64,000 nt of DNA from an uncultured Candidatus Saccharibacteria bacterium (GTDB lineage Bacteria > Patescibacteriota > Saccharimonadia > Saccharimonadales > SZUA-47): positions 25,457-89,456 of the forward strand of contig CAZHXX010000004.1 of the NCBI GenBank assembly GCA_964536485.1. Reading direction: 5' to 3'. Each line of letters opens with the position of its first letter. Within the stretch, counting starts at the first letter, position 1. Position numbers and translations under genes: made by a program. The notes beneath the pieces are model-generated. The model was not told the DNA's origin. It did no database searches and was given only the letters and a program-made list of their open reading frames with translations. Shown piece by piece: positions 4,502 through 61,300 of the stretch.

Positions 4502-5452
4502 TTAGAGCGCCTCCTGATCGTATAGTTGGTTAACAGCGTCACGGAAAGGCGTAGCTTCTGACTCTCGTATATTGCAAAGCTTAGGGTTATAGCTAGAAAC
4601 ACCGAACTCTACGCATCGTGTCTCGTCTCGAATCCCGTACTGCTGGCAGAGTTTATCGGTACGACTCTTGAGTTTGTCGAACTCTACAATGACGCAGTCT
4701 CCCGGTGGCACCGTAGACTCATCGCGCATGACATAGTCTGCTGGATTCGAAAGCTTGGTTTGGGTATAGGTTTTAGCTTCTTTGTCATAGCGTATAAGGA
4801 ATGTCTGGAGCTCTGCATAGCCGTCCGCACTACACCCAATGCCGTTTTGTGCGGTGAGAATAGTATTCCCGTTGCTATCTGTGCTAACCATGTTTTTTAT
4901 GAGTTGTTGGTCGCCAGATGCTTTGTCTCCATCGTTGTCATCTTCAAAAATAGCCGGTTCGGTAGGAATAATAATTTTGTCTTGACGAATCTCGCCGCCA
5001 GTAACTTTCATAAATTTTTGGAGCGATGCATCGTAGTCTTTGTCTACGACGACACCTTCAAGGTGTATCCGCTTGTCGTCGTGCTCATGAAATGTACTGG
5101 TGCCAACTTTGTTGCTTAGGAATTCGTGTGGGTCACGGAGCTCGATTTCTTGACCGCACACCCAGAACTCAATGTCGGCATGCCAGTGCACCGGACCTTT
5201 TGAGTCGGAAATGGTATTGATATAGACGGTTGAGACGGTCAAGACGAGAGAGGGCACAATGATGGTGCCAGCAATGGCAAGAAAGAGTGGTTTCTTGAGA
5301 TTTTTGTGCTTTTTCTTGGTAATTATTCGAGAAGAAACAACAATAAGTGCGATCAGAACAAGAGACGCAACTAGGACAAGCCGAATGCTCAAGGCATTTA
5401 TACGACTTTCAATATCTCCCTCTGTGCTCGCAAGCAGTCCTAGCAGTTCCAT
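4502..5452 (-). CDS. Membrane-anchored exported Cys/His-rich protein of unknown function
   Basis: 316 aa. It has an N-terminal TM segment (LVLVASLVLIALIVV) followed by VHWHADIEFWVCGQEIEL...STFHEHDDKRIHLEG and 7 Cys. It is the first gene of a tightly packed four-gene operon. Confidence 0.6.
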   Translation of the reverse strand: MELLGLLASTEGDIESRINALSIRLVLVASLVLIALIVVSSRIITKKKHKNLKKPLFLAIAGTIIVPSLVLTVSTVYINTISDSKGPVHWHADIEFWVCGQEIELRDPHEFLSNKVGTSTFHEHDDKRIHLEGVVVDKDYDASLQKFMKVTGGEIRQDKIIIPTEPAIFEDDNDGDKASGDQQLIKNMVSTDSNGNTILTAQNGIGCSADGYAELQTFLIRYDKEAKTYTQTKLSNPADYVMRDESTVPPGDCVIVEFDKLKSRTDKLCQQYGIRDETRCVEFGVSSYNPKLCNIRESEATPFRDAVNQLYDQEAL

Positions 5453-5536
5453 AGCTGTAAACCCACCAAAAAATTAAATTGCTTATCGTTAAAATTCACT
5501 ATACCATAGGTGTTATTAGGGAACAACAGCTATTTC

Positions 5537-8356
5537 ATGAAGTGGTTTCAGAAAGACGTTCAGTCGATACTTAAAGAACAGATGGTGGTGGCCGAACACG
5601 GGCTTAGCACGGTGGTTGCCACGCAGCGCCAACAGAAGTTTGGCAAAAATCAGTTAGCGTCTGCGAAGAAGATTAACCCCTTAGCTCTTTTTATGGGGCA
5701 ATTCAAAGATGTGCTTGTCATTATCTTGCTAATCGCGGCGGTTGTCTCGTGGGGAGTAGGCGCTATTGGTGACGAAACACCAGCGCAGGAGCCTCACCAT
5801 TCAGCAGTCATCTGCGACCAGCGGGGCCTGCAACTAACCACTAGTGCGTCCGAGGAATGTAATGCCAATGTTGTTCAAAAAAGCCACTCATCCGAGGGTG
5901 CACAAGAGGCGCTTCTGATAATTGCTATCGTTATTGCTATAGCAACCATAGGGTTTTTTAATGAATACAAAGCAGAGAAGACGGTTGAAGCCCTTAAGAA
6001 GCTCGTAGGACAAAAAGCCAAGGTGAGGCGCGGTGGCACGGTGCAAGAGATTGATGCTGTCGATATCGTCCCCGGAGATATTGTCTTGCTTGAAGAAGGG
6101 GCGAAAGTCCCAGCGGACCTACGGCTTATTCAGGTGAGAGGACTGCAGATAAACGAAGCAAGTTTGACGGGTGAAAGTGTGCCTGTATCAAAACAGCAAG
6201 AGCTCATAAAAAAAGAGGCGACGCTGGGAGACCAAAAAAATATGGCTTTTGCAGGGACTTTTGTGACGCAGGGAACAGCAGAAGGCGTTGTGGTGGCGAT
6301 AGCTCAGCAGACAGAGCTAGGGAAAATAGCTACCTTGGTTAATGACATTGAGACAGAAGAGACGCCCATGCAGAGAAAACTTGATGAGCTTGGAAAAAAG
6401 CTGGGAATTTTGATACTTGCTATCTGTGCAATTGTTTTTGTTATTGTCCTGCTACTTGTTGATGAGGCAAAAGATCGGGACTTTCTGCAACGGGCAATTT
6501 TTGCCTTTACGGCAGCAGTGGCACTCGCAGTCGCGGCAATTCCTGAGGGGTTAGCGTTTGTGGTGCGAATTAGCCTCGCGCTGGGGGCACGCAGAATGGC
6601 GAGCAAAAATGCGCTTGTCAGAAGGCTTAGTGCAGTTGAAGCACTTGGAAGTACCGATGTTATTTGTTCAGACAAAACAGGAACACTAACAAAAGGTGAG
6701 ATGACCGTACGAGAAATTTATGCCGGAGACCAAACAATCGAAGTGAGTGGGACCGGCTATGAGCATCATGGGGATTTTGAAGTTGAAGGAAAAAAGGTAG
6801 CGTTGACTCATGCGCATGAACGGCTGTTACTTATTGGTGCTTTGTGCAATAACGCACGGCTAAAAGGTGAGGCTGTTTTGGGAGACCCCACAGAAGGAAG
6901 CCTGCTTATCTCGGCTATGAAGGCAGGCTATAACTACGAAAAAGTACAAGAAAATTACGCCCGCGTGAACGAAATTCCTTTTACGAGTGAGAGAAAATTT
7001 ATGACTACCATTCACCGGGTTGCGAGCAATCACTTTTTTGTTGCTTCAAAAGGTTCTGTGGAGGCAACTTTGGTACGATGCACGCATATGCTTTCAAAAA
7101 GTGGCAAAGTGATAAAGCTCAAACAAGAAGATAAGGAACGCATTCTTTTAAAGAACAACGAGTTCTCGCGCAAGGCTCTCCGGGTGCTCGCCTTTGCTTA
7201 TAAAGAAGAAAAAACAGAGCCAAAAGAAACAAAAGCGCTTGAAAAAGGGCTCGTGTTCGTCGGCCTGCAGGCAATGATGGATCCACCTCGAACAGAAGTT
7301 ATTGAAGTGATTCACCGCGTTCAGACAGAAGCCGGCATGCGCGTCATCATGATAACGGGTGACTATATAGAGACAGCAAAGGCCGTCGCAGAAGAAGTCG
7401 GTATTAACGGAGAAGCCATAAGTGGTGCTGAGCTAGAAGCTATGAGCCAAGAGGAATTCGAGGCTCGAGCAACCACTATATCAGTCTATGCTCGCTTAAA
7501 CCCAGAGCATAAGATTCGCATTGTTAAAGCCTTAAAAAAGCATGGCTACCAAGTCGCTATGACAGGTGACGGGGTAAACGACGCGCCCGCAATAAAAGCA
7601 GCAGATATTGGTATTGCCATGGGGATCACGGGGACCGATGCTAGCAAAGAAGCCGCAGATCTTATCTTGCTCGATGATAAATTCTTAACAATTATTAGCG
7701 CCATAGAAGAAGGACGCGGAATCTTTGACAATGTCCGAAAATTTGTAAACTTCCTTATCTCGTGCAATATAGCCGAGGTACTTGCCATTTTGTTTGGCAT
7801 CTTATTCTTTAACAATTTGCTCCTCACTGCAGCGCAACTACTTTTCATAAACATCGTGACCGATGGTCTCCCGGCAGTAGCATTAGGGAGTGACCCTACT
7901 CGGGCAGATGTCCTTAAGGCAAAGCCAAGCCGTTTTCAAGAAGCAATCCTGACAAAACGCGTGTGGACCGAGATTTTTATTTTTGGGTCTCTCATGACAG
8001 CTATCCTGCTTGTGCAGTATTGGTACAACCACACACATGAAAGCACGATGGCTGGTGTGTCGGCAGCTTTCACTGCAATGGTTGTCTACGAGCTTGTTCG
8101 TCTTGTAGACATTCGAACCGACTATAAAATTCGTTGGTTTTCAAATCCGCTTTTGTCAGTTTCGCTTCTTTTTTCTCTGCTCTTACAGTTTACCGTGCTC
8201 TACATACCGTTTTTGGCATCGTACTTTGAGGTAGGACCACTATCAAGTCATGACTGGTGGTTTATGCTGGGGGGATCCCTCGGCCTCTTCGTTACTATGA
8301 AGCTTCTTAATCCTCTTCTCGATAGTGTTGTTGGTCCTGAAAATCACGCAGCTTAG
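5537..8356 (+). CDS. P-type cation-transporting ATPase (P2, Ca2+/Mg2+-type)
   Basis: Motifs present: TGES, phosphorylation site CSDKTGTLT, MITGD, hinge TGDGVNDAPAIKAADIGIAMG, and IPEGLAFVV in TM4. I prefer the ATG at 5537 (MKWFQKDV...) over the track GTG start at 5510. Confidence 0.9.
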   Translation: MKWFQKDVQSILKEQMVVAEHGLSTVVATQRQQKFGKNQLASAKKINPLALFMGQFKDVLVIILLIAAVVSWGVGAIGDETPAQEPHHSAVICDQRGLQLTTSASEECNANVVQKSHSSEGAQEALLIIAIVIAIATIGFFNEYKAEKTVEALKKLVGQKAKVRRGGTVQEIDAVDIVPGDIVLLEEGAKVPADLRLIQVRGLQINEASLTGESVPVSKQQELIKKEATLGDQKNMAFAGTFVTQGTAEGVVVAIAQQTELGKIATLVNDIETEETPMQRKLDELGKKLGILILAICAIVFVIVLLLVDEAKDRDFLQRAIFAFTAAVALAVAAIPEGLAFVVRISLALGARRMASKNALVRRLSAVEALGSTDVICSDKTGTLTKGEMTVREIYAGDQTIEVSGTGYEHHGDFEVEGKKVALTHAHERLLLIGALCNNARLKGEAVLGDPTEGSLLISAMKAGYNYEKVQENYARVNEIPFTSERKFMTTIHRVASNHFFVASKGSVEATLVRCTHMLSKSGKVIKLKQEDKERILLKNNEFSRKALRVLAFAYKEEKTEPKETKALEKGLVFVGLQAMMDPPRTEVIEVIHRVQTEAGMRVIMITGDYIETAKAVAEEVGINGEAISGAELEAMSQEEFEARATTISVYARLNPEHKIRIVKALKKHGYQVAMTGDGVNDAPAIKAADIGIAMGITGTDASKEAADLILLDDKFLTIISAIEEGRGIFDNVRKFVNFLISCNIAEVLAILFGILFFNNLLLTAAQLLFINIVTDGLPAVALGSDPTRADVLKAKPSRFQEAILTKRVWTEIFIFGSLMTAILLVQYWYNHTHESTMAGVSAAFTAMVVYELVRLVDIRTDYKIRWFSNPLLSVSLLFSLLLQFTVLYIPFLASYFEVGPLSSHDWWFMLGGSLGLFVTMKLLNPLLDSVVGPENHAA

Positions 8357-8399
8357 ACGCACCAGGTACAGTTGCGCGAATTTATTAAATAAAATAGTA

Positions 8400-8428
8400 T
8401 TGACAAAAAACAAAGCATAAGCTATAAT
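8400..8428 (+). promoter_or_regulatory. Consensus sigma70-type promoter
   Basis: TTGACA (8400-8405), a 17-nt spacer, then TATAAT (8423-8428), read directly from the sequence. Confidence 0.6.
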
Positions 8429-8489
8429 ACTGGTATTGTTGATAAAACAAAAACCATCAGCAAAACAAATATAAAAAAGGAACAAAAGT

Positions 8490-8639
8490 ATGGTCTTCGG
8501 ACTTGGAACCAAAAAGGTTCATAAAGAATCAAAGTCATCAGCTAACGCGACAACTACGAGCTCTCAAGCTGAAGAAGCGGCAGAAATGCTGAAAAAGATG
8601 GAAGCAAAAAAAGACGCAGGCGATTGCCCGTTTTGTTAG
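8490..8639 (+). CDS. Candidate 49-aa micro-protein ending in CPFC
   Basis: The ORF runs from ATG 8490 to TAG 8637-8639. It translates to MVFGLGTKKVHKESKSSANATTTSSQAEEAAEMLKKMEAKKDAGDCPFC. It starts about 60 nt downstream of the consensus promoter and has only a weak SD (aaaaagga). It falls below the track's size cutoff. Confidence 0.3.
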   Translation: MVFGLGTKKVHKESKSSANATTTSSQAEEAAEMLKKMEAKKDAGDCPFC

Positions 8640-8651
8640 CGTAAATCTCAT

Positions 8652-8927
8652 GAGACACCCCTTTTGGGGTTTCTCTTCCCGCGGGGGAGTGGAGTAACTC
8701 CACTCCGACGGGTGCTCTTCCGGAAGAAGAAAAGCACAGAGAATAGTTTTTGGCGGGGACGAGTGATTTTAAAAACAAAAATAAAAATGTTTCTCTAAAA
8801 TCGCTCGCAACCCATCAAAAAGTTTCGAAAAATTTAATAAAAATCGATTGTTTTTCGAAGCACACCTATGACATACTAGTGAAGTCATAGACAAATCAAT
8901 AAAACTTTTAAAAACAAAAAGTTTTAT
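8652..8927. other. Run of seven consecutive stem-loops in non-coding DNA (candidate structured RNA, function unknown)
   Basis: Hairpins read by eye:
- gagacacccc/ggggtttctc (8652-8675)
- ggagtggag/ctccactcc inside cccg/cggg (8678-8712)
- gtgct..agcac (8712-8737)
- cgagtgatttta/taaaatcgctcg (8760-8808)
- tttcgaaaaa/tttttcgaag (8823-8870)
- ctatgac/gtcatag (8875-8899)
- ataaaactttt/aaaagttttat (about 8899-8927). Confidence 0.4.
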
Positions 8928-9144
8928 TGGTAAAACAAAAAACTATAAAAACAAAAAATAAGAAAGGAATACATCACTTTTAGTTCTTTTACCATCGTAA
9001 AAAAGGGAAAAGAGCATGTGTGGTAGAAAATCTCTGCAACACATTCAAGTGAAAAGCGACTATGAGTTACGAACGATCAGAATCAAAAAGCTTCTTGGTC
9101 AAAATATATGATCGAATCTTTGACGCAAAGTAGATTCTAAACTA

Positions 9145-9201
9145 ATAAAAAAACTTCTTCGGTAGTTTGTGTGAGTCAGTCACCGCCGAAGAAGTTTTTT
9201 G
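9145..9201. terminator. Bidirectional intrinsic terminator
   Basis: cttcttcgg (9154-9162) pairs with ccgaagaag (9186-9194), with an A-run upstream and tttttt (9195-9200) downstream. It sits 14 nt beyond the stop of the minus-strand gene 9215..10255. Confidence 0.6.
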
Positions 9202-9214
9202 TTTGCAAAAGATA

Positions 9215-10255
9215 TTATCTCTTAGAACAGGTAGGGTCTATAACCATTTCAATTTTGCGGAAAATAGATTCATTTTCTTCGCTGTATCCCAAGTCGGTGA
9301 TTGCTGGTTCCTCAACGATAATGCGGTCTTCAGGAATACCACGAGATCTAAGTTGGTTTTTGGCCTTCTCACCACGCATTTTTGCCACCTCGTAATCAGA
9401 TGCTCCTCGAATTGTTTGAAGCGTTCCTGCGTTGTAGGTGGTGCGAAGACGAATTATCCATTGCTTTTCGTTAGCGGCAATAGCAAAGCGTGCGATATCG
9501 TCATAGGCGTTTAGGACAGATTCTTCTTCTGTTGTGTCGGCTTTAAAGAAGACAATGGCGGATTTGTTTGCCACGGTTGAAAGAGGTTCGTACGTGGTGC
9601 TCCAGACAATAAAGTCTTCTTCCTGTGGAGTGTTTGCAAAGGCGTAATCTTTTTGCTCGACACATGCTAAAGAGCTGTATATATCAGTCGCTTGTTTGGG
9701 AGGAACGATTTGGTTTGGGTCAGGAAGTGATGCGGGCAATAGTGCTAATTTATCATCAAGTCCACCGGCAAAAACAAGTGATGATAGCTTTTCTCCATTG
9801 CTTACGTTAACTCCGATACGGGCATAAACACTTGGAGAATCTTTTAGCTCATAAAGAAAATACCAGTCTGGACCAACTTGCTTGCGTTCAACAACCTTAA
9901 AAGTTCCTTTCACCTGTTCTGCGGCTGTTGCAAGGAGCTTTTGTGCGTAGGCGTCTTGTTCTTTTGCAAGCGTGACGAGTTCTTCGGTATTTCCTTTTGA
10001 AGCAGCTGTCATTATGTTTGTTGCGTAGTCTTCTGCAGGTGAAGTTGGTTTGTTAAGGGTAAAATAGCCTACGATAAGCCCTGCAACTAATAGAAGGAAT
10101 GCGGTAAACAAAATAGAGTGTGCACGATGGGAGAGCCTTGGTACGCGGGTGTTGGTAGTAGGAGACGAGTCAGTGCTCACCGGATTCTGAGTAGGGGTAA
10201 CTGGTGTAGAGGGGGTAACGGTAGATTCTGTAGCTGATGATGTTTCTTTATCCAT
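9215..10255 (-). CDS. Membrane-anchored exported protein; the C-terminus weakly resembles an OmpA/MotB peptidoglycan-binding domain
   Basis: 346 aa. It has a T/S/P-rich N-terminus and one TM segment (ILFTAFLLLVAGLIVGYF). The C-terminal IRGASDYEVAKMRGEKAKNQLRSRGIPEDRIIV...FRKIEMVI loosely resembles the OmpA_C pattern. Confidence 0.5.
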   Translation of the reverse strand: MDKETSSATESTVTPSTPVTPTQNPVSTDSSPTTNTRVPRLSHRAHSILFTAFLLLVAGLIVGYFTLNKPTSPAEDYATNIMTAASKGNTEELVTLAKEQDAYAQKLLATAAEQVKGTFKVVERKQVGPDWYFLYELKDSPSVYARIGVNVSNGEKLSSLVFAGGLDDKLALLPASLPDPNQIVPPKQATDIYSSLACVEQKDYAFANTPQEEDFIVWSTTYEPLSTVANKSAIVFFKADTTEEESVLNAYDDIARFAIAANEKQWIIRLRTTYNAGTLQTIRGASDYEVAKMRGEKAKNQLRSRGIPEDRIIVEEPAITDLGYSEENESIFRKIEMVIDPTCSKR

Positions 10256-10551: not shown

Positions 10552-10611
10552 TCAAATAAAAAACCCACCATTGTAGGTGAGTTGTTTATTTGGTAGCGGG
10601 AGTGAGATTTG
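10552..10611 (-). repeat. Partner copy of the 60-nt repeat (terminator plus 3' 21 nt of the functional tRNA)
   Basis: See 10368..10427. The hairpin is acccacc (10563-10569) with ggtgagt (10576-10582), followed on the minus strand by a T-run, and acts as the tRNA terminator. Confidence 0.8.
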
Positions 10612-10667
10612 AACTCGCGACCTCAGGCTTATGAGTCCTGCGCTCTAACCAACTGAGCTATCCCGCC
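10591..10667 (-). tRNA. tRNA with CAU anticodon (elongator Met or Ile2/lysidine type; not initiator)
   Basis: Reverse complement: GGCGGGATAGCTCAGTTGGTTAGAGCGCAGGACTCATAAGCCTGAGGTCGCGAGTTCAAATCTCACTCCCGCTACCA. It folds as a cloverleaf with anticodon loop CTCATAA and an encoded CCA. It has a G1-U72 wobble and a C50:A64 mismatch. Confidence 0.9.
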
Positions 10668-58353: not shown

Positions 58354-61300
58354 TTGTTGCAAAAAAAGAGACTATTTGGAGGGCTATTTGTACTATTGTC
58401 GTTGCTGGCAGTTGTGCTTATTGTTGCACTAAGGCCAGTGAAGGTCCCTGTTAATGGGCTGTTGCGTCAGTCCAACGGAACTCCTGTGAGTGACGGATAT
58501 TATGACCTGCGCGTTGTCGGGTTTAATGCCCAGAGCGGGTTGCAGACTATAGAGCAGGACTTTCAAGATGTGTTTGTGAGTAGTGGCCAGTATGAGGTGC
58601 CGGTAAATTTGAATCGTTTTTCTGCGACAGGAGATACTTATCTCCAGATTTGTCGTACCGAGGTACCTACTTCTGCTAAGGATGGCATCGAGACCAATGT
58701 GCCGGACGGCTGTAAACAACCAGTCGAGGAGAAGGACACCTTCACATACGCTGAATGTCCACAGACTATCTCCATTAATGCCGCAGGTGGTCTTGCGCGG
58801 CTTCTCGGTGAAAGACAGGCATCACTCTTCAGTCAGTGTGTCTATGAAGCAAAAGATACTTCAGGGAACGATCTTCCTTTGGCTCCTTCTGAAGCGCAGC
58901 AGCCAAGTGTCGTGGCGCTAAAAGGCGACAAAGGAGATACTGGTGAAGCTGGGCTTTCCGGTGAAACTGGATCTAAAGGTGAAACTGGTGAACAGGGTGC
59001 TCCTGGCAAAGATGGTGCTAATGGAGCCACGGGTGCAGCAGGCCCGGTAGGGCCAGTAGGGCCTCAGGGAGCAATAGGGCCGGCCGGCGATCCTGCTACA
59101 GACGACCAAACACTTTCTTTTGGAGGCGCGAGCATCCTTTCGATAGCTGGCGGTAATTCTGTTAGTCTCGCATCGCTTCTTGATAATACTGATACATTAG
59201 CAAGTTTATCCTGTGCGAATGGCCAGGTGGCGCAGTGGAACACGATTGCTTGGCAATGTGCTTCAGCATCGGTTGATACTGACCAGCAAACACTTGCAGT
59301 CATTGGTTCTGGTGCTGGAAGGCAACTTCAAATTTCTGGCGGTAATACTGTTGGGCTATCTGATAACGACACAACGTATAGCGCTGGAACAGGACTTACT
59401 TTAGCAGGAACAGCATTTTCGCTTGCGACTTCGGGGGTTAGTGCTGGAAGTTATGGCTCTGCAACACAAATACCAACGCTTACTGTGGATGCTCAAGGGA
59501 GAATTACCAGTGTTACAACTGCTACTATTACCGACGCCGACACTTTAGCTGGTCTTTCTTGCTCAAGCAACCAGGTTGCTAAGTGGAATGGGAGCGCATG
59601 GGTATGTGCAAATGATACAGACACCAACACTGACGCACAGACCCTGAATCTTTCTGTTAACACGTTAAGTATAAGTGGCGGAAACTCCGTGAATCTTGCG
59701 AGCTATCTCGATAACACTGACGCCCAAACGGTAAGTTATTCGACCGGTACCAAGCTCTTGTCTATTAGTGGGGGCAACACGGCAGATTTATCCTCTCTTT
59801 TAGATAACACTGATGCACAAGATTTGTCACTCACCTCAAATACACTCAGTCTTACAGGGGACGCTTCTACCGTTGATTTAACTCCTTACCTAGATAATAC
59901 CGATACACTCGCCAGTCTCTCCTGTTCGAGTGGTCAGGTAGCACAGTGGAATGGTTCTGTGTGGGTTTGTGCATCCGCCTCGGTTGATACAGACGACCAG
60001 ACTCTGAGCTACACAGCCGGTACACAAACGCTCACAATTTCAGAAGGGAATAGTGTTTTTCTTTCTAGTCTTCTCGACAACACCGATAGTCAAGCAATCT
60101 CACTGACCGGTAACACCTTGTCTATATCTGGTAATGTTGGCACTGTCGACCTCTCCGGTTACTTAGACGACACCGTCTTAAGCGAAGCCCAAGTAGATAG
60201 CTATGTCTCTAACAATGGCTACCTTACGAGTGAAGTTGATGGCAGTACGACCAATGAATTGCAAGACCTAAACCTCAGTGGCAATACACTCACTCTTACC
60301 GTCATCGGTTCCCCCACTAACATTGATCTTAGTCCTTACTTAGATAACACCGACACCCAAGACCTTAGTCTTATTGGCAATACACTTAGTCTTGTTGCTG
60401 GTGGTTCAGTAGATTTATCTGGCTACTTAGATAACACTGACGCACAAGATCTTACTCGCACTGGTAATATCTTGGCTCTCACTAATGACGCTGGTACGGT
60501 TGATCTCTCAGATCTTCTCGACAACACCGATAGTCAAAACCTCTTCTTCACTATTAACGCACCAAACGGTACTGACCCAACTGCAGACAGTGCAACCGAC
60601 ACGCTTAATCTTGCAGATGGTGCTGGCATTACCATCACAGGTGACAGCACTACGGATACGCTTACTATTGCGTCAGTATTAGGTACCAGCATAGACAGTA
60701 GCGAAATTACTGACGGTACTATTACCTTTGCAGACATTGCAAACAATAGTTGTGGAACTGATGAAATCTTTAAGTTTAATGGTTCTGCTTGGTACTGTGG
60801 CGCAGATAATGACACGGCAGTCTCAGAAGCAGCAGTTGAAGCCTTTATCTTTGACGCAGACAATACAGGGACACTCAGCTCAGGCACCCTCGCTCTTGGC
60901 TCACTCAGCTACACTGGCACCCTAAGTGATACTAACATTGCCGACGCTCTCACTATTAGTTCTTCTGGTTCTGTGGCTGACGGTGCACTTAGTGCCAATG
61001 TCTCACTGTTTGGTAGCTCAGTAGACTCTAGTGAGATTACCAATGGCACGGTGACTGGTACTGACCTTGCCAGTGCTACTATCCTCTTTAGCAATATTGC
61101 TCAGAACGGCTGCAGTGGCAACCAGATCATGAAGTGGAATGGCTCTGCCTGGGCTTGTGCCGCAGACGTTGACACTGACACTGATGCACAGAATCTCTTC
61201 CAGACACTTAATGCAGACAATGGTACCGACCCAGTTGCTGACAGTGCCACCGACACACTTAACTTGGTCAGTGGAGCAGGAGTCACTATTACTGGCGACA

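Follow-up and report, generated by a model that had tools for sequence, protein, structure and literature searches.

A probable transcription unit of Candidatus Saccharibacteria with two micro-open reading frames and a conserved RNA element downstream of a P-type ATPase gene

Several bacterial loci are known in which very small proteins are encoded in peptide-encoding, dual-function RNAs or small-protein genes, such as RNAIII/delta-toxin of Staphylococcus aureus, the psm genes, SgrS/SgrT and SR1/SR1P. Micropeptides also serve as regulators or subunits of P-type ATPases (phospholamban, sarcolipin, KdpF, MgtS and MgtR) and, to our knowledge, all those of P-type pumps are single-pass membrane helices. 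The genomes of Saccharibacteria measure ~1 Mb and contain hardly any non-coding DNA. For strain TM7x, validation of small RNAs in the genome was still lacking according to a transcriptome preprint (10.1101/2022.03.25.485537). The present analysis concerns an 858 bp gap (positions 8357–9214) in a 64,000-nucleotide (nt) stretch of DNA from an uncultured Candidatus Saccharibacteria bacterium (contig CAZHXX010000004.1), hereafter referred to as the window. The gap extends from the stop of a gene for a 948-amino-acid (aa) P-type ATPase (5510–8356, + strand) to the stop of a 346-aa open reading frame (ORF; 9215–10255, − strand), and is likely to represent a conserved Saccharibacteria transcription unit with two real micro-proteins, encoded by ORF1 and ORF2, and a functional RNA element. 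As in bacterial small-ORF genes and dual-function RNAs, the ORFs are of 22–49 codons, with ORF2 below gene-caller limits, and the unit has its own strong predicted promoter and terminator as well as extensive RNA structure around the ORFs. Full-text searches of the literature revealed no description of this unit.

Conservation and architecture of the unit

On a crude ORF map, spacers in the window have a median length of 72 nt and only five besides the gap exceed 300 nt, the largest being located at 59304–60533. A previous reading made from the sequence alone (the sequence-only reading) had regarded the gap as unusually long, which these figures confirm, and had pointed to an A-rich tract with a repeated motif, which is present as well: five of the six copies of AAAACAAAAA in the 64-kb window lie inside the gap, whose A content is 40% compared with 28.5% in the window. 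The gap was compared with more than 30 related loci from Candidatus Saccharibacteria metagenome-assembled genomes (MAGs) and metagenome contigs, and conserved blocks were located by BLAST of the gap against the related loci and by a 10-locus alignment. The conserved blocks comprised the promoter, ORF1, positions 8747–8920 and positions 9062–9200. These features are more than chance, since the promoter, the two real ORFs, one of the helices and the terminator reappear across more than 30 independent loci. The nearest relatives of the ATPase (59–75% identity) belong to MAGs labelled Candidatus Saccharibacteria, Saccharimonadia or Saccharimonadales, in which 0.7–1.3 kb without a long ORF follow the pump gene and the next gene varies by locus.

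The TTGACA-17-TATAAT sequence already noticed in the gap matches the consensus of a sigma-70-type promoter throughout, its activity being predicted. In all 10 loci found via the ATPase this promoter, TATTGACA-N6-AAAGCATAAGCTATAAT, is identical, spacer included, with the spacer portion AAAGCATAAGC invariant in each, and the pump proteins of these ten loci differ by 25–40%. The pattern occurs once in the window, where none is expected, and a scan of public metagenome contigs yielded 22 further loci. Since every match with enough downstream DNA leads into the same kind of unit, including ORF2, the promoter sequence is specific to the unit. The retention of ~0.3–1 kb in dozens of lineages, together with a base-identical promoter, points to an important and probably highly expressed function, and this promoter (P1) is expected to fire, and to fire strongly. 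In the distant locus L106 (~1085–1115), the spacer position reads AAAGCTTATGC, in which TTAT, the reverse complement, replaces the central ATAA between unchanged AGC...GCT flanks. Such a change hints at a dyad operator, AGC-N4-GCT, at which a regulator would bind between the −35 and −10 boxes. Downstream of the promoter, a GTTGA..(A-rich)..TCAAC stem-loop was found at the matching position in all compared loci, and an AAAGGA-type motif precedes ORF1 in the relatives.

At the other end of the gap, the bidirectional terminator proposed earlier proved to have the features of an intrinsic terminator, with a fully complementary stem of 15 bp flanked by A6 upstream and T6 downstream; a simple terminator scan had missed it because its loop is 23 nt long. 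Across 14 distinct loci, 95% of the stem is paired, with both-sided changes in six pairs and a covariation score of 0.30 as against 0.135 in shuffles (reached by 0 of 500). Inside the hairpin there is a conserved motif, AGTCAGTCA (9174–9182), GGTCAGTC recurs in the loop in most loci, and the sequence motif (G)GTCAGTCA is kept within the interior, which is unusual for a terminator.

Between these two ends, the unit is composed of a 5' stem-loop, an A-rich leader with AAGGA, ORF1, a post-stop hairpin, variable hairpins, a two-helix element, two further hairpins, an A-rich tract with GAAAGGA, an inserted hairpin pair in this lineage, and ORF2 (Table 1). Promoter, leader, ORF2 and terminator are always present, and ORF1 and the spacer are optional. 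Thus, the related loci L081, L100 and L101 have no ORF1, and in them the two-helix element comes after the leader and ORF2 after the element; L008 and L011 likewise do without ORF1, and in L091, which lacks the two-helix element, ORF2 starts 90 nt after the −35 box. The distant locus L104 carries a 67-aa ORF1 followed by MSEVQLGFEVSPTKHPLIKIIDKWL, and the distant L009 a 52-aa ORF1 followed by a 33-aa ORF beginning MEALSQLGYEL, the second ORF being preceded by GAAAGG in both. As these distant loci keep two micro-ORFs in unchanged order, with the promoter ahead of ORF1, a short spacer before GAAAGG and the terminator behind the second ORF, the ancestral state looks like a bicistronic micro-protein operon. 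The comparative data support the earlier proposal of a ~750-nt transcript with micro-proteins and structured RNA, except that the second ORF is the one at 9062–9133 and not that at 9016–9111.

Table 1. Features of the gap between the P-type ATPase gene and the convergent 346-aa ORF (positions in the window).
Feature	Position	Strand	Basis or remark
Promoter P1; −35 TTGACA (8400–8405), 17-nt spacer, −10 TATAAT (8423–8428)	8400–8428	+	12/12 consensus
5' leader stem-loop GTTGAT/ATCAGC with A-rich loop AAAACAAAAA	8436–8463	+	minimum free energy (MFE) fold
Shine-Dalgarno-like AAGGAA, 7 nt before the ORF1 ATG	8477–8482	+	read from the sequence
ORF1, 49 aa, MVFGLGTKKVHKESKSSANATTTSSQAEEAAEMLKKMEAKKDAGDCPFC	8490–8639	+	translation; homologues; ratio of non-synonymous to synonymous changes (pN/pS)
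Stable hairpin directly after the ORF1 stop, GAGAcACCCC-UUUU-GGGGUuUCUC, weak U tract	8652–8675	+	MFE fold
Two GC-rich hairpins, 8678–8712 (including GGAGTGGAGT/ACTCCACTCC) and 8712–8737	8678–8737	+	inverted repeats, MFE fold
Two-helix element; helix P1 8747–8757/8811–8821, helix P2 8760–8771/8796–8807, variable apical loop	8747–8821	+	covariation
Hairpin A (8822–8861) and hairpin B (8867–8889) with conserved loop AUACUAGU	8822–8889	+	MFE fold
AT-only hairpin CAATAAAACTTTT/AAAAGTTTTATTG	8897–8929	+	13-nt arms, 100% complementary; lineage-specific, not conserved
A-rich tract (AAAACAAAAA repeats) ending in conserved GAAAGGA (8962–8968)	8930–8968	+	repeat count, alignment
Structured insertion; hairpins Y (8983–9015) and Z (9016–9044), possible closing helix CACUU/AAGUG	8976–9051	+	MFE fold
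ORF2, 23 aa, MSYERSESKSFLVKIYDRIFDAK; frame different from that of the 9016–9111 ORF	9062–9133	+	26 loci; codon statistics
Intrinsic terminator, common to the convergent 346-aa gene; stem 9148–9162/9186–9200	9145–9201	.

Coding potential of the two micro-ORFs

The 49-codon ORF ending in DCPFC that had been read from the sequence is not only present but conserved as coding sequence. Its product begins with a conserved M-x-F/L-G-L-G, continues with a K/S/T-rich linker of variable sequence and a helix conserved as DEAAxxLKKMEAKK, and ends in the motif C-x-F-C (C-[PAE]-F-C), whose Cys46, Phe48 and Cys49, preceded by Asp or Glu, are the sole invariant residues of the family. Homologues show 58–82% identity, and a profile search of 1.84 billion representative proteins delineated a family of 56 clusters at 50% identity, nearly all of 45–90 aa. 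Across the 24 conserved C-terminal codons of 19 distinct sequences, pN/pS was 0.16 in frame as opposed to 1.6–1.7 in the other two frames; by this measure ORF1 is under purifying selection in the manner of a protein-coding gene. AlphaFold2 predicted a single helix at residues 22–42 with low confidence elsewhere (mean predicted local distance difference test score 67), and the maximum Kyte-Doolittle mean over 19 aa (−0.43) revealed no hydrophobic segment. Neither ORF1 nor its relatives matched any family among Pfam, NCBIfam and PDB profiles; SHOCT-like, DUF6243 and Mnt were considered and rejected as weak and inconsistent hits far below the cut-offs. A protein called only 'hypothetical' in the sources thus gains a family context.

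As second micro-gene, the sequence-only reading had put forward the 31-codon ORF at 9016–9111, which is physically present but not conserved. The ATG is missing in 20 of 24 loci, the open frame varies from 6 to 56 codons with variable stops, and pN/pS is 1.14, which together rule out a coding gene. ORF2, on the other hand, is found in each of the 26 loci whose sequence extends sufficiently far (24 distinct DNA sequences), with a conserved stop position, a length of 22 codons in all but one of the 24 distinct sequences and of 23 codons in this window, and ATG, GTG or TTG as start. Codon-position entropies of 0.72, 0.48 and 1.10 mark the third position as the most variable, and in the 24 distinct sequences pN/pS is 0.35 in frame versus 0.97 and 1.14 off frame. 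Replacements are conservative (R/K, I/L/M/F and D/E), and Arg codons alternate synonymously between CGT and AGA. Judged by these statistics, ORF2 is a coding gene and the universal coding component of the unit.

The C-terminal 13 aa of ORF2 form an amphipathic stretch (hydrophobic moment 0.59–0.68), and again no hydrophobic segment was detected (maximum Kyte-Doolittle mean over 19 aa, −0.53). Exact look-up of ten ORF2 variants among ~15 billion predicted proteins retrieved none, as expected of a gene below the gene-caller length limit; at 22–23 codons, ORF2 is a gene invisible to annotation pipelines. In the compact relatives L091, L100, L081 and L101, GAAAGG is located 10–14 nt ahead of the ORF2 start, and GAAAGGA is the predicted ORF2 ribosome-binding site in these units. 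The possibility that ORF2 is the tag peptide of a transfer-messenger RNA (tmRNA) was ruled out, as ARAGORN detected no tmRNA.

RNA structure of the spacer and rival explanations

The fold of the plus strand from 8435 to 9206 has an MFE of −222 kcal/mol, compared with −152 ± 7 kcal/mol for shuffled sequences (z = −10), and contains the seven consecutive hairpins that had been reported for 8652–8927, here lying between 8652 and 8929. As regards their conservation, the post-ORF1 hairpin and the element at 8747–8821 are kept, whereas 8678–8737 and 8897–8929 are specific to this lineage, the former segment being unalignable or absent in the multi-locus alignment.

The two-helix element was recognized in 23 distinct loci, including some without ORF1. 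Its internal loop, [G/A]A (GA here) opposite CAA, is nearly invariant together with the closing pairs; 83% of the alignment cells are paired (90% in helix P2) as against 32–49% in slid controls, and both-sided changes occur in 12 of 23 pairs versus 6.6 in column shuffles, a value reached by none of 500 shuffles. Alignment of the syntenic gaps hence bears out covariation for this helix as well as for the terminator, in hand counts rather than by R-scape. Frequent U-G pairs, which would be A-C mismatches on the opposite strand, show that the plus strand is the RNA. With regard to a possible riboswitch or cis-regulatory leader, the element has invariant loop nucleotides, lies upstream of ORF2 in all loci and forms its 5' untranslated region in the compact units, with L091 doing without it; no expression platform or ligand can be named, and we read the unit as a small-gene module rather than as a riboswitch. 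Whether the GA/CAA internal loop might form a kink-turn was also considered, and the idea was dropped, as the bulged strand lacks the required G-A step. The two-helix element contributes a candidate new structured RNA motif.

The hairpin after the ORF1 stop was present in 20 of 20 distinct ORF1-containing loci, with varying sequence, maintained pairing and a folding free energy of −16 to −34 kcal/mol. Its arms typically read GAGAGGAGG and CCTCCTCTC (8652–8675 and 19 other loci), one being Shine-Dalgarno-like and the other anti-Shine-Dalgarno-like. In hairpins A and B, compensatory changes were read by eye in both stems. The motif GTTCTTTT.CC...GGGAAAAGAGC of the structured insertion is conserved in L001, L003 and L011, a simple hairpin, CACTTTTA..TAAAAGTG, takes its position in L007, and the CACUU/AAGUG closing helix is possible. 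In the compact units L081, L084, L096, L099, L100 and L101, the palindrome CTGCAG tips short hairpins before ORF2 (for example AAAATACTGCAGTATTTT) and recurs ~40–60 nt after the ORF2 stop. Within the lineage-variable segment, GUGCUCUUCCGGAAGAAG (8712–8729) was considered as a signal recognition particle (SRP) RNA tetraloop region and dropped, since the Rfam SRP models gave no match and the segment is not conserved.

Hairpins A and B are overlapped by a 30-nt motif, TTGTTT (8848–8853) followed after 18 nt by TGaCATACT (8869–8877), that resembles an extended −10 promoter and whose exact spacing is kept in 13 of 24 distinct loci. The gap might accordingly hold two transcription units, one leading from P1 through ORF1 and the structured RNA to ~8860, the other from the internal extended −10 promoter (8848–8877) into a ~320-nt RNA with ORF2, an arrangement that we regard as plausible though not probable. 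The fixed spacing, hexamer-like conserved ends, invariant TG and variable middle of the motif speak for this arrangement, and so do the distance of more than 400 nt between ORF2 and ORF1 in the window and the resemblance of the post-ORF1 hairpin to a weak terminator. Yet the compact loci L081, L084, L099, L100, L101 and L091 lack the internal motif and have only P1 ahead of ORF2, and CATACT matches the −10 consensus at only four of six positions. Moreover, the halves of the motif sit in hairpins with compensatory changes, again read by eye (TATGAC/GTCATA versus TGTGAC/GTCACA, and TTCGAAAAA/TTTTTCGAA versus TTCCTAAAAACAA/TTGTTTTTAGGAA), which argues for a constraint at the RNA level.

The stability of the overall fold, the covarying helix with its invariant internal loop, the conservation of loop motifs unlike that in ordinary terminators and spacers, the invariance of the promoter, typical of housekeeping RNAs, and the retention of the two-helix element in units without ORF1 could also mean that the functional product is mainly RNA. 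It would then be a large structured non-coding or dual-function RNA like RNAIII or SgrS, with the peptides secondary, and proteins or other RNAs would bind at the two-helix element, at the loop AUACUAGU and at the motif AGUCAGUCA of the terminator. This we consider unlikely, given the protein-level purifying selection on both ORFs, the fact that only promoter, leader, ORF2 and terminator are universally kept (L091 lacking the two-helix element) and the lack of conservation at 8678–8737 and 8897–8929 of the spacer. The stricter proposal of an unrecognised large RNA that is purely non-coding is contradicted because both ORFs show coding selection, part of the spacer being nonetheless conserved RNA structure.

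Nor does the region belong to a known RNA family, be it a riboswitch, one of the large non-coding RNAs such as OLE, ROOL, GOLLD and raiA, or 6S, tmRNA, RNase P or SRP RNA. Rfam 15 at the gathering threshold detected two tRNAs only in the window and tRNAs only in seven related loci, and a permissive scan (E ≤ 10) of 8200–9400 gave nothing beyond sub-threshold compositional hits (isrJ, SpR18 and miRNA). The best of them, isrJ (RF01393), covers the −10 box and the A-rich leader (8423–8472; E = 0.01), skips 26 model positions and scores 27.6 bits, below its 37-bit gathering threshold. As isrJ is a small RNA of a Salmonella island, the match is taken as compositional.

The neighbouring pump and comparison with described systems

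In the ATPase upstream of the gap, Pfam recognizes Cation_ATPase_N, E1-E2_ATPase and Cation_ATPase_C, the NCBIfam models that fit it best are those of PMR1- and SERCA-type Ca2+ pumps, and from its sequence it is assigned to type P2A (Ca2+/Mn2+-like). Among the loci found through the promoter, a sample unbiased towards the pump, 12 of ~19 have the unit behind the ATPase gene and six or seven have it behind other genes; three loci are too short to tell. Such other upstream genes encode, for example, a two-component system in L100 and an unassigned 333-aa protein in L102. A pump is also located upstream in L103, which was found via an ORF1 homologue, and in the distant, GC-richer L105, and is not in L106. 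When 80 ATPase loci were scanned for M..FGL...C.FC micro-ORFs, matches appeared only beside pumps of the candidate phyla radiation (CPR) type, with none in 65 pump loci from non-CPR phyla and none elsewhere in the 6-kb flanks. In Saccharibacteria, L009 and L010 among them, the ORF1-like genes come downstream of the pump gene; in L012 (Levyibacteriota) and L013 they precede it in divergent orientation. A neighbourhood preserved in two different arrangements classically hints at a functional link.

It is conceivable that ORF1, and perhaps ORF2 as well, assists or regulates the P2A-type cation pump next to it. ORF1-type genes adjoin PMR1/SERCA-like pumps across ATPase identities of 50–82% and were not found near the 65 more distant homologues. 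Still, the unit also stands beside unrelated genes, some pump-adjacent units have no ORF1, neither peptide has a hydrophobic segment (19-aa Kyte-Doolittle maxima below zero), the pump has no complementary Cys pair, and a neighbourhood within one phylum may be inherited synteny; such a role for the unit is accordingly doubtful, and a direct partnership of ORF1 with the pump is a reasonable but tentative lead. The idea that a micro-protein near the pump regulates it thus stands as far as the conserved neighbourhood is concerned and falls short in that the link is not obligatory and no transmembrane helix exists. What remains is a testable hypothesis of a micro-protein with a C-terminal CxFC that is linked to a Ca2+/Mn2+-type pump in CPR bacteria.

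At their C-termini the Saccharibacteria pumps (window 8330–8353; L001–L007 and L015) have a short His tail, G-x-E-N-H-x-H, which reads VGPENHAA here and is absent from the more distant pump homologues listed; it might be a metal-binding or docking tail. In L012 the ORF1-like gene encodes 42 aa (MAIFGLFSSG...KSCEFC; 5776–5904, −) and lies between a gene for a 193-aa membrane protein (5172–5753, +), which we take to resemble the transmembrane part of an MgtE-type divalent-cation transporter, and the pump gene (5941–8664, +).

That the locus is a type I toxin-antitoxin-like or selfish small-peptide module, or a mobile-element remnant beside a tRNA, is highly improbable: the short ORF, strong promoter and long structured untranslated regions recall hok- or zor-type loci and a tRNA-Met is near the unit in many loci, but the peptides are hydrophilic or amphipathic and not hydrophobic as type I toxins are, ORF and family surveys and repeat surveys showed no integrase genes or flanking repeats, and no conserved antisense promoter was seen, the sole minus-strand promoter-like site in the gap (8406–8379, 9/12) pointing away. 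The related suggestion of a decayed element beside the tRNA is likewise at odds with a unit that is syntenic across many genomes, under purifying selection, single-copy (no second copy of ORF1 or ORF2 was found in the window) and absent from 2.9 million viral contigs.

A tRNA with CAT anticodon (tRNA-Met type, from its sequence) is located on the + strand directly 3' of the unit terminator in L002, L003, L005, L010, L093 and L103. In the window the tRNA-Met (10591–10667, −) lies behind the 346-aa ORF, for which the family search gave no match, and this arrangement suggests a local insertion or inversion in this lineage. Elsewhere in the window, 59304–60533 was rejected as a second large gap because it reads as repetitive coding sequence: from ~59250–60600 onward a long open frame has tandem imperfect repeats of ~60–70 aa with the recurring pattern ...YLDNTD.Q.LSL.GNTLSL..., probably belonging to a large repetitive surface protein. 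In L092 (WBZQ01008589.1) the exact promoter and leader are found at the contig end, preceded by 3 kb of very GC-rich DNA unlike Saccharibacteria, and this contig may be a chimeric assembly.

Several points weigh against the reading of the gap as one transcription unit with two micro-proteins and an RNA element. Transcription of the unit, its boundaries and its translation are predicted from sequence, and the covariation counts, obtained with related sequences and hand-trimmed variable loops, are indicative and not a formal R-scape analysis. The internal promoter-like motif could give ORF2 a separate transcript, the post-ORF1 hairpin is predicted to be capable of terminating part of the transcription, and in the window ORF2 has no good Shine-Dalgarno sequence within 15 nt of its ATG, GAAAGGA being located 93 nt upstream, on the far side of the two inserted hairpins. 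ORF1 is absent even from the pump-adjacent units L008, L011 and L081. The link to the pump is not obligatory either, as other genes lie upstream of the unit in L085, L087, L093, L100, L101, L102 and L106, and no Cys pair or CxxC motif that could complete a zinc site with ORF1 was found in the ATPase.

If the unit nevertheless functions as we propose, the near-perfect sigma-70-type promoter would start an RNA of ~770 nt, with a stem-loop at its 5' end followed by the A-rich leader, and ORF1 would be translated into a soluble protein with a hydrophobic MxFGLG start, a disordered Lys/Ser-rich linker, one helix and an Asp/Glu-Cys-x-Phe-Cys tail. The stable hairpin after the ORF1 stop would be followed by a spacer having the covarying two-helix element with its invariant internal loop as conserved core. 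The A-rich tract and the GAAAGGA ribosome-binding motif would lead to ORF2, a peptide whose C-terminal half would form an amphipathic helix, and the strong intrinsic terminator with its conserved internal motif would end the transcript. Most likely, as a general mechanism, a stable and strongly transcribed mRNA would deliver two small proteins, soluble or amphipathic in nature; protection or stabilisation of the RNA would fall to the 5' hairpin and the terminator, and the conserved helix could be a protein- or ligand-binding site tuning ORF2 expression. The terminal CxFC of ORF1 may bind metal or be redox-active.

CPFC is the active-site tetrad of glutaredoxins (CP[FY]C), and two-Cys hooks such as that of Rad50 bind zinc between two chains. 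The invariant Cys46, Phe48 and Cys49 of ORF1 resemble these glutaredoxin and hook-type CxxC sites. In contrast to the glutaredoxin/thioredoxin fold, which spans ~80–110 aa and has its CxxC at the N-terminus of a helix, ORF1 has 49 aa, one predicted helix and its CxFC at the extreme C-terminus, and two Cys are insufficient for a tetrahedral metal site within one chain. With phospholamban, sarcolipin, KdpF, MgtS and MgtR the unit shares a tiny protein encoded beside a P-type pump in a conserved neighbourhood. It differs from them in that ORF1 and ORF2 have no hydrophobic segment and hence no candidate transmembrane helix, that ORF1 is rich in Lys and Ser, is disordered for the most part and ends in CxFC, and that the unit is equipped with a promoter of its own and is also found apart from the pump.

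The amphipathic helical half of ORF2 is similar in size to phenol-soluble modulins, whereas the peptide is near neutral with a mean hydrophobicity of −0.2 to 0, as against +0.1 to +0.2 in modulins. Compared with RNAIII, psm, SgrS/SgrT and SR1/SR1P, the unit shows no sequence similarity and has no named base-pairing target; its two ORFs are ~420 nt apart with partly conserved structure between them, and its host belongs to a reduced-genome episymbiont phylum. It is a possibility, and one we put forward with reserve, that this module, widespread in Saccharibacteria and extending through relatives of ORF1 to one or more further CPR phyla, represents a new kind of soluble accessory system together with a new cis-regulatory RNA motif. 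Two roles would fit the module in that case: sensing of metal or redox state through a Cys tail, in partnership with the P2A cation pump, or supply of an amphipathic effector peptide, highly expressed, that serves the episymbiotic way of life. The two-helix element may then be a new cis-regulatory protein- or ligand-binding motif. Even if the peptides turn out to be mundane, the locus is a useful marker, and its promoter and terminator, predicted to be strong, offer a native pair for genetic work now emerging in Saccharibacteria. In relation to the described systems, the general design is of the known small-protein/structured-RNA kind, while the ORF families are new and two micro-ORFs around a conserved RNA element constitute a new layout.

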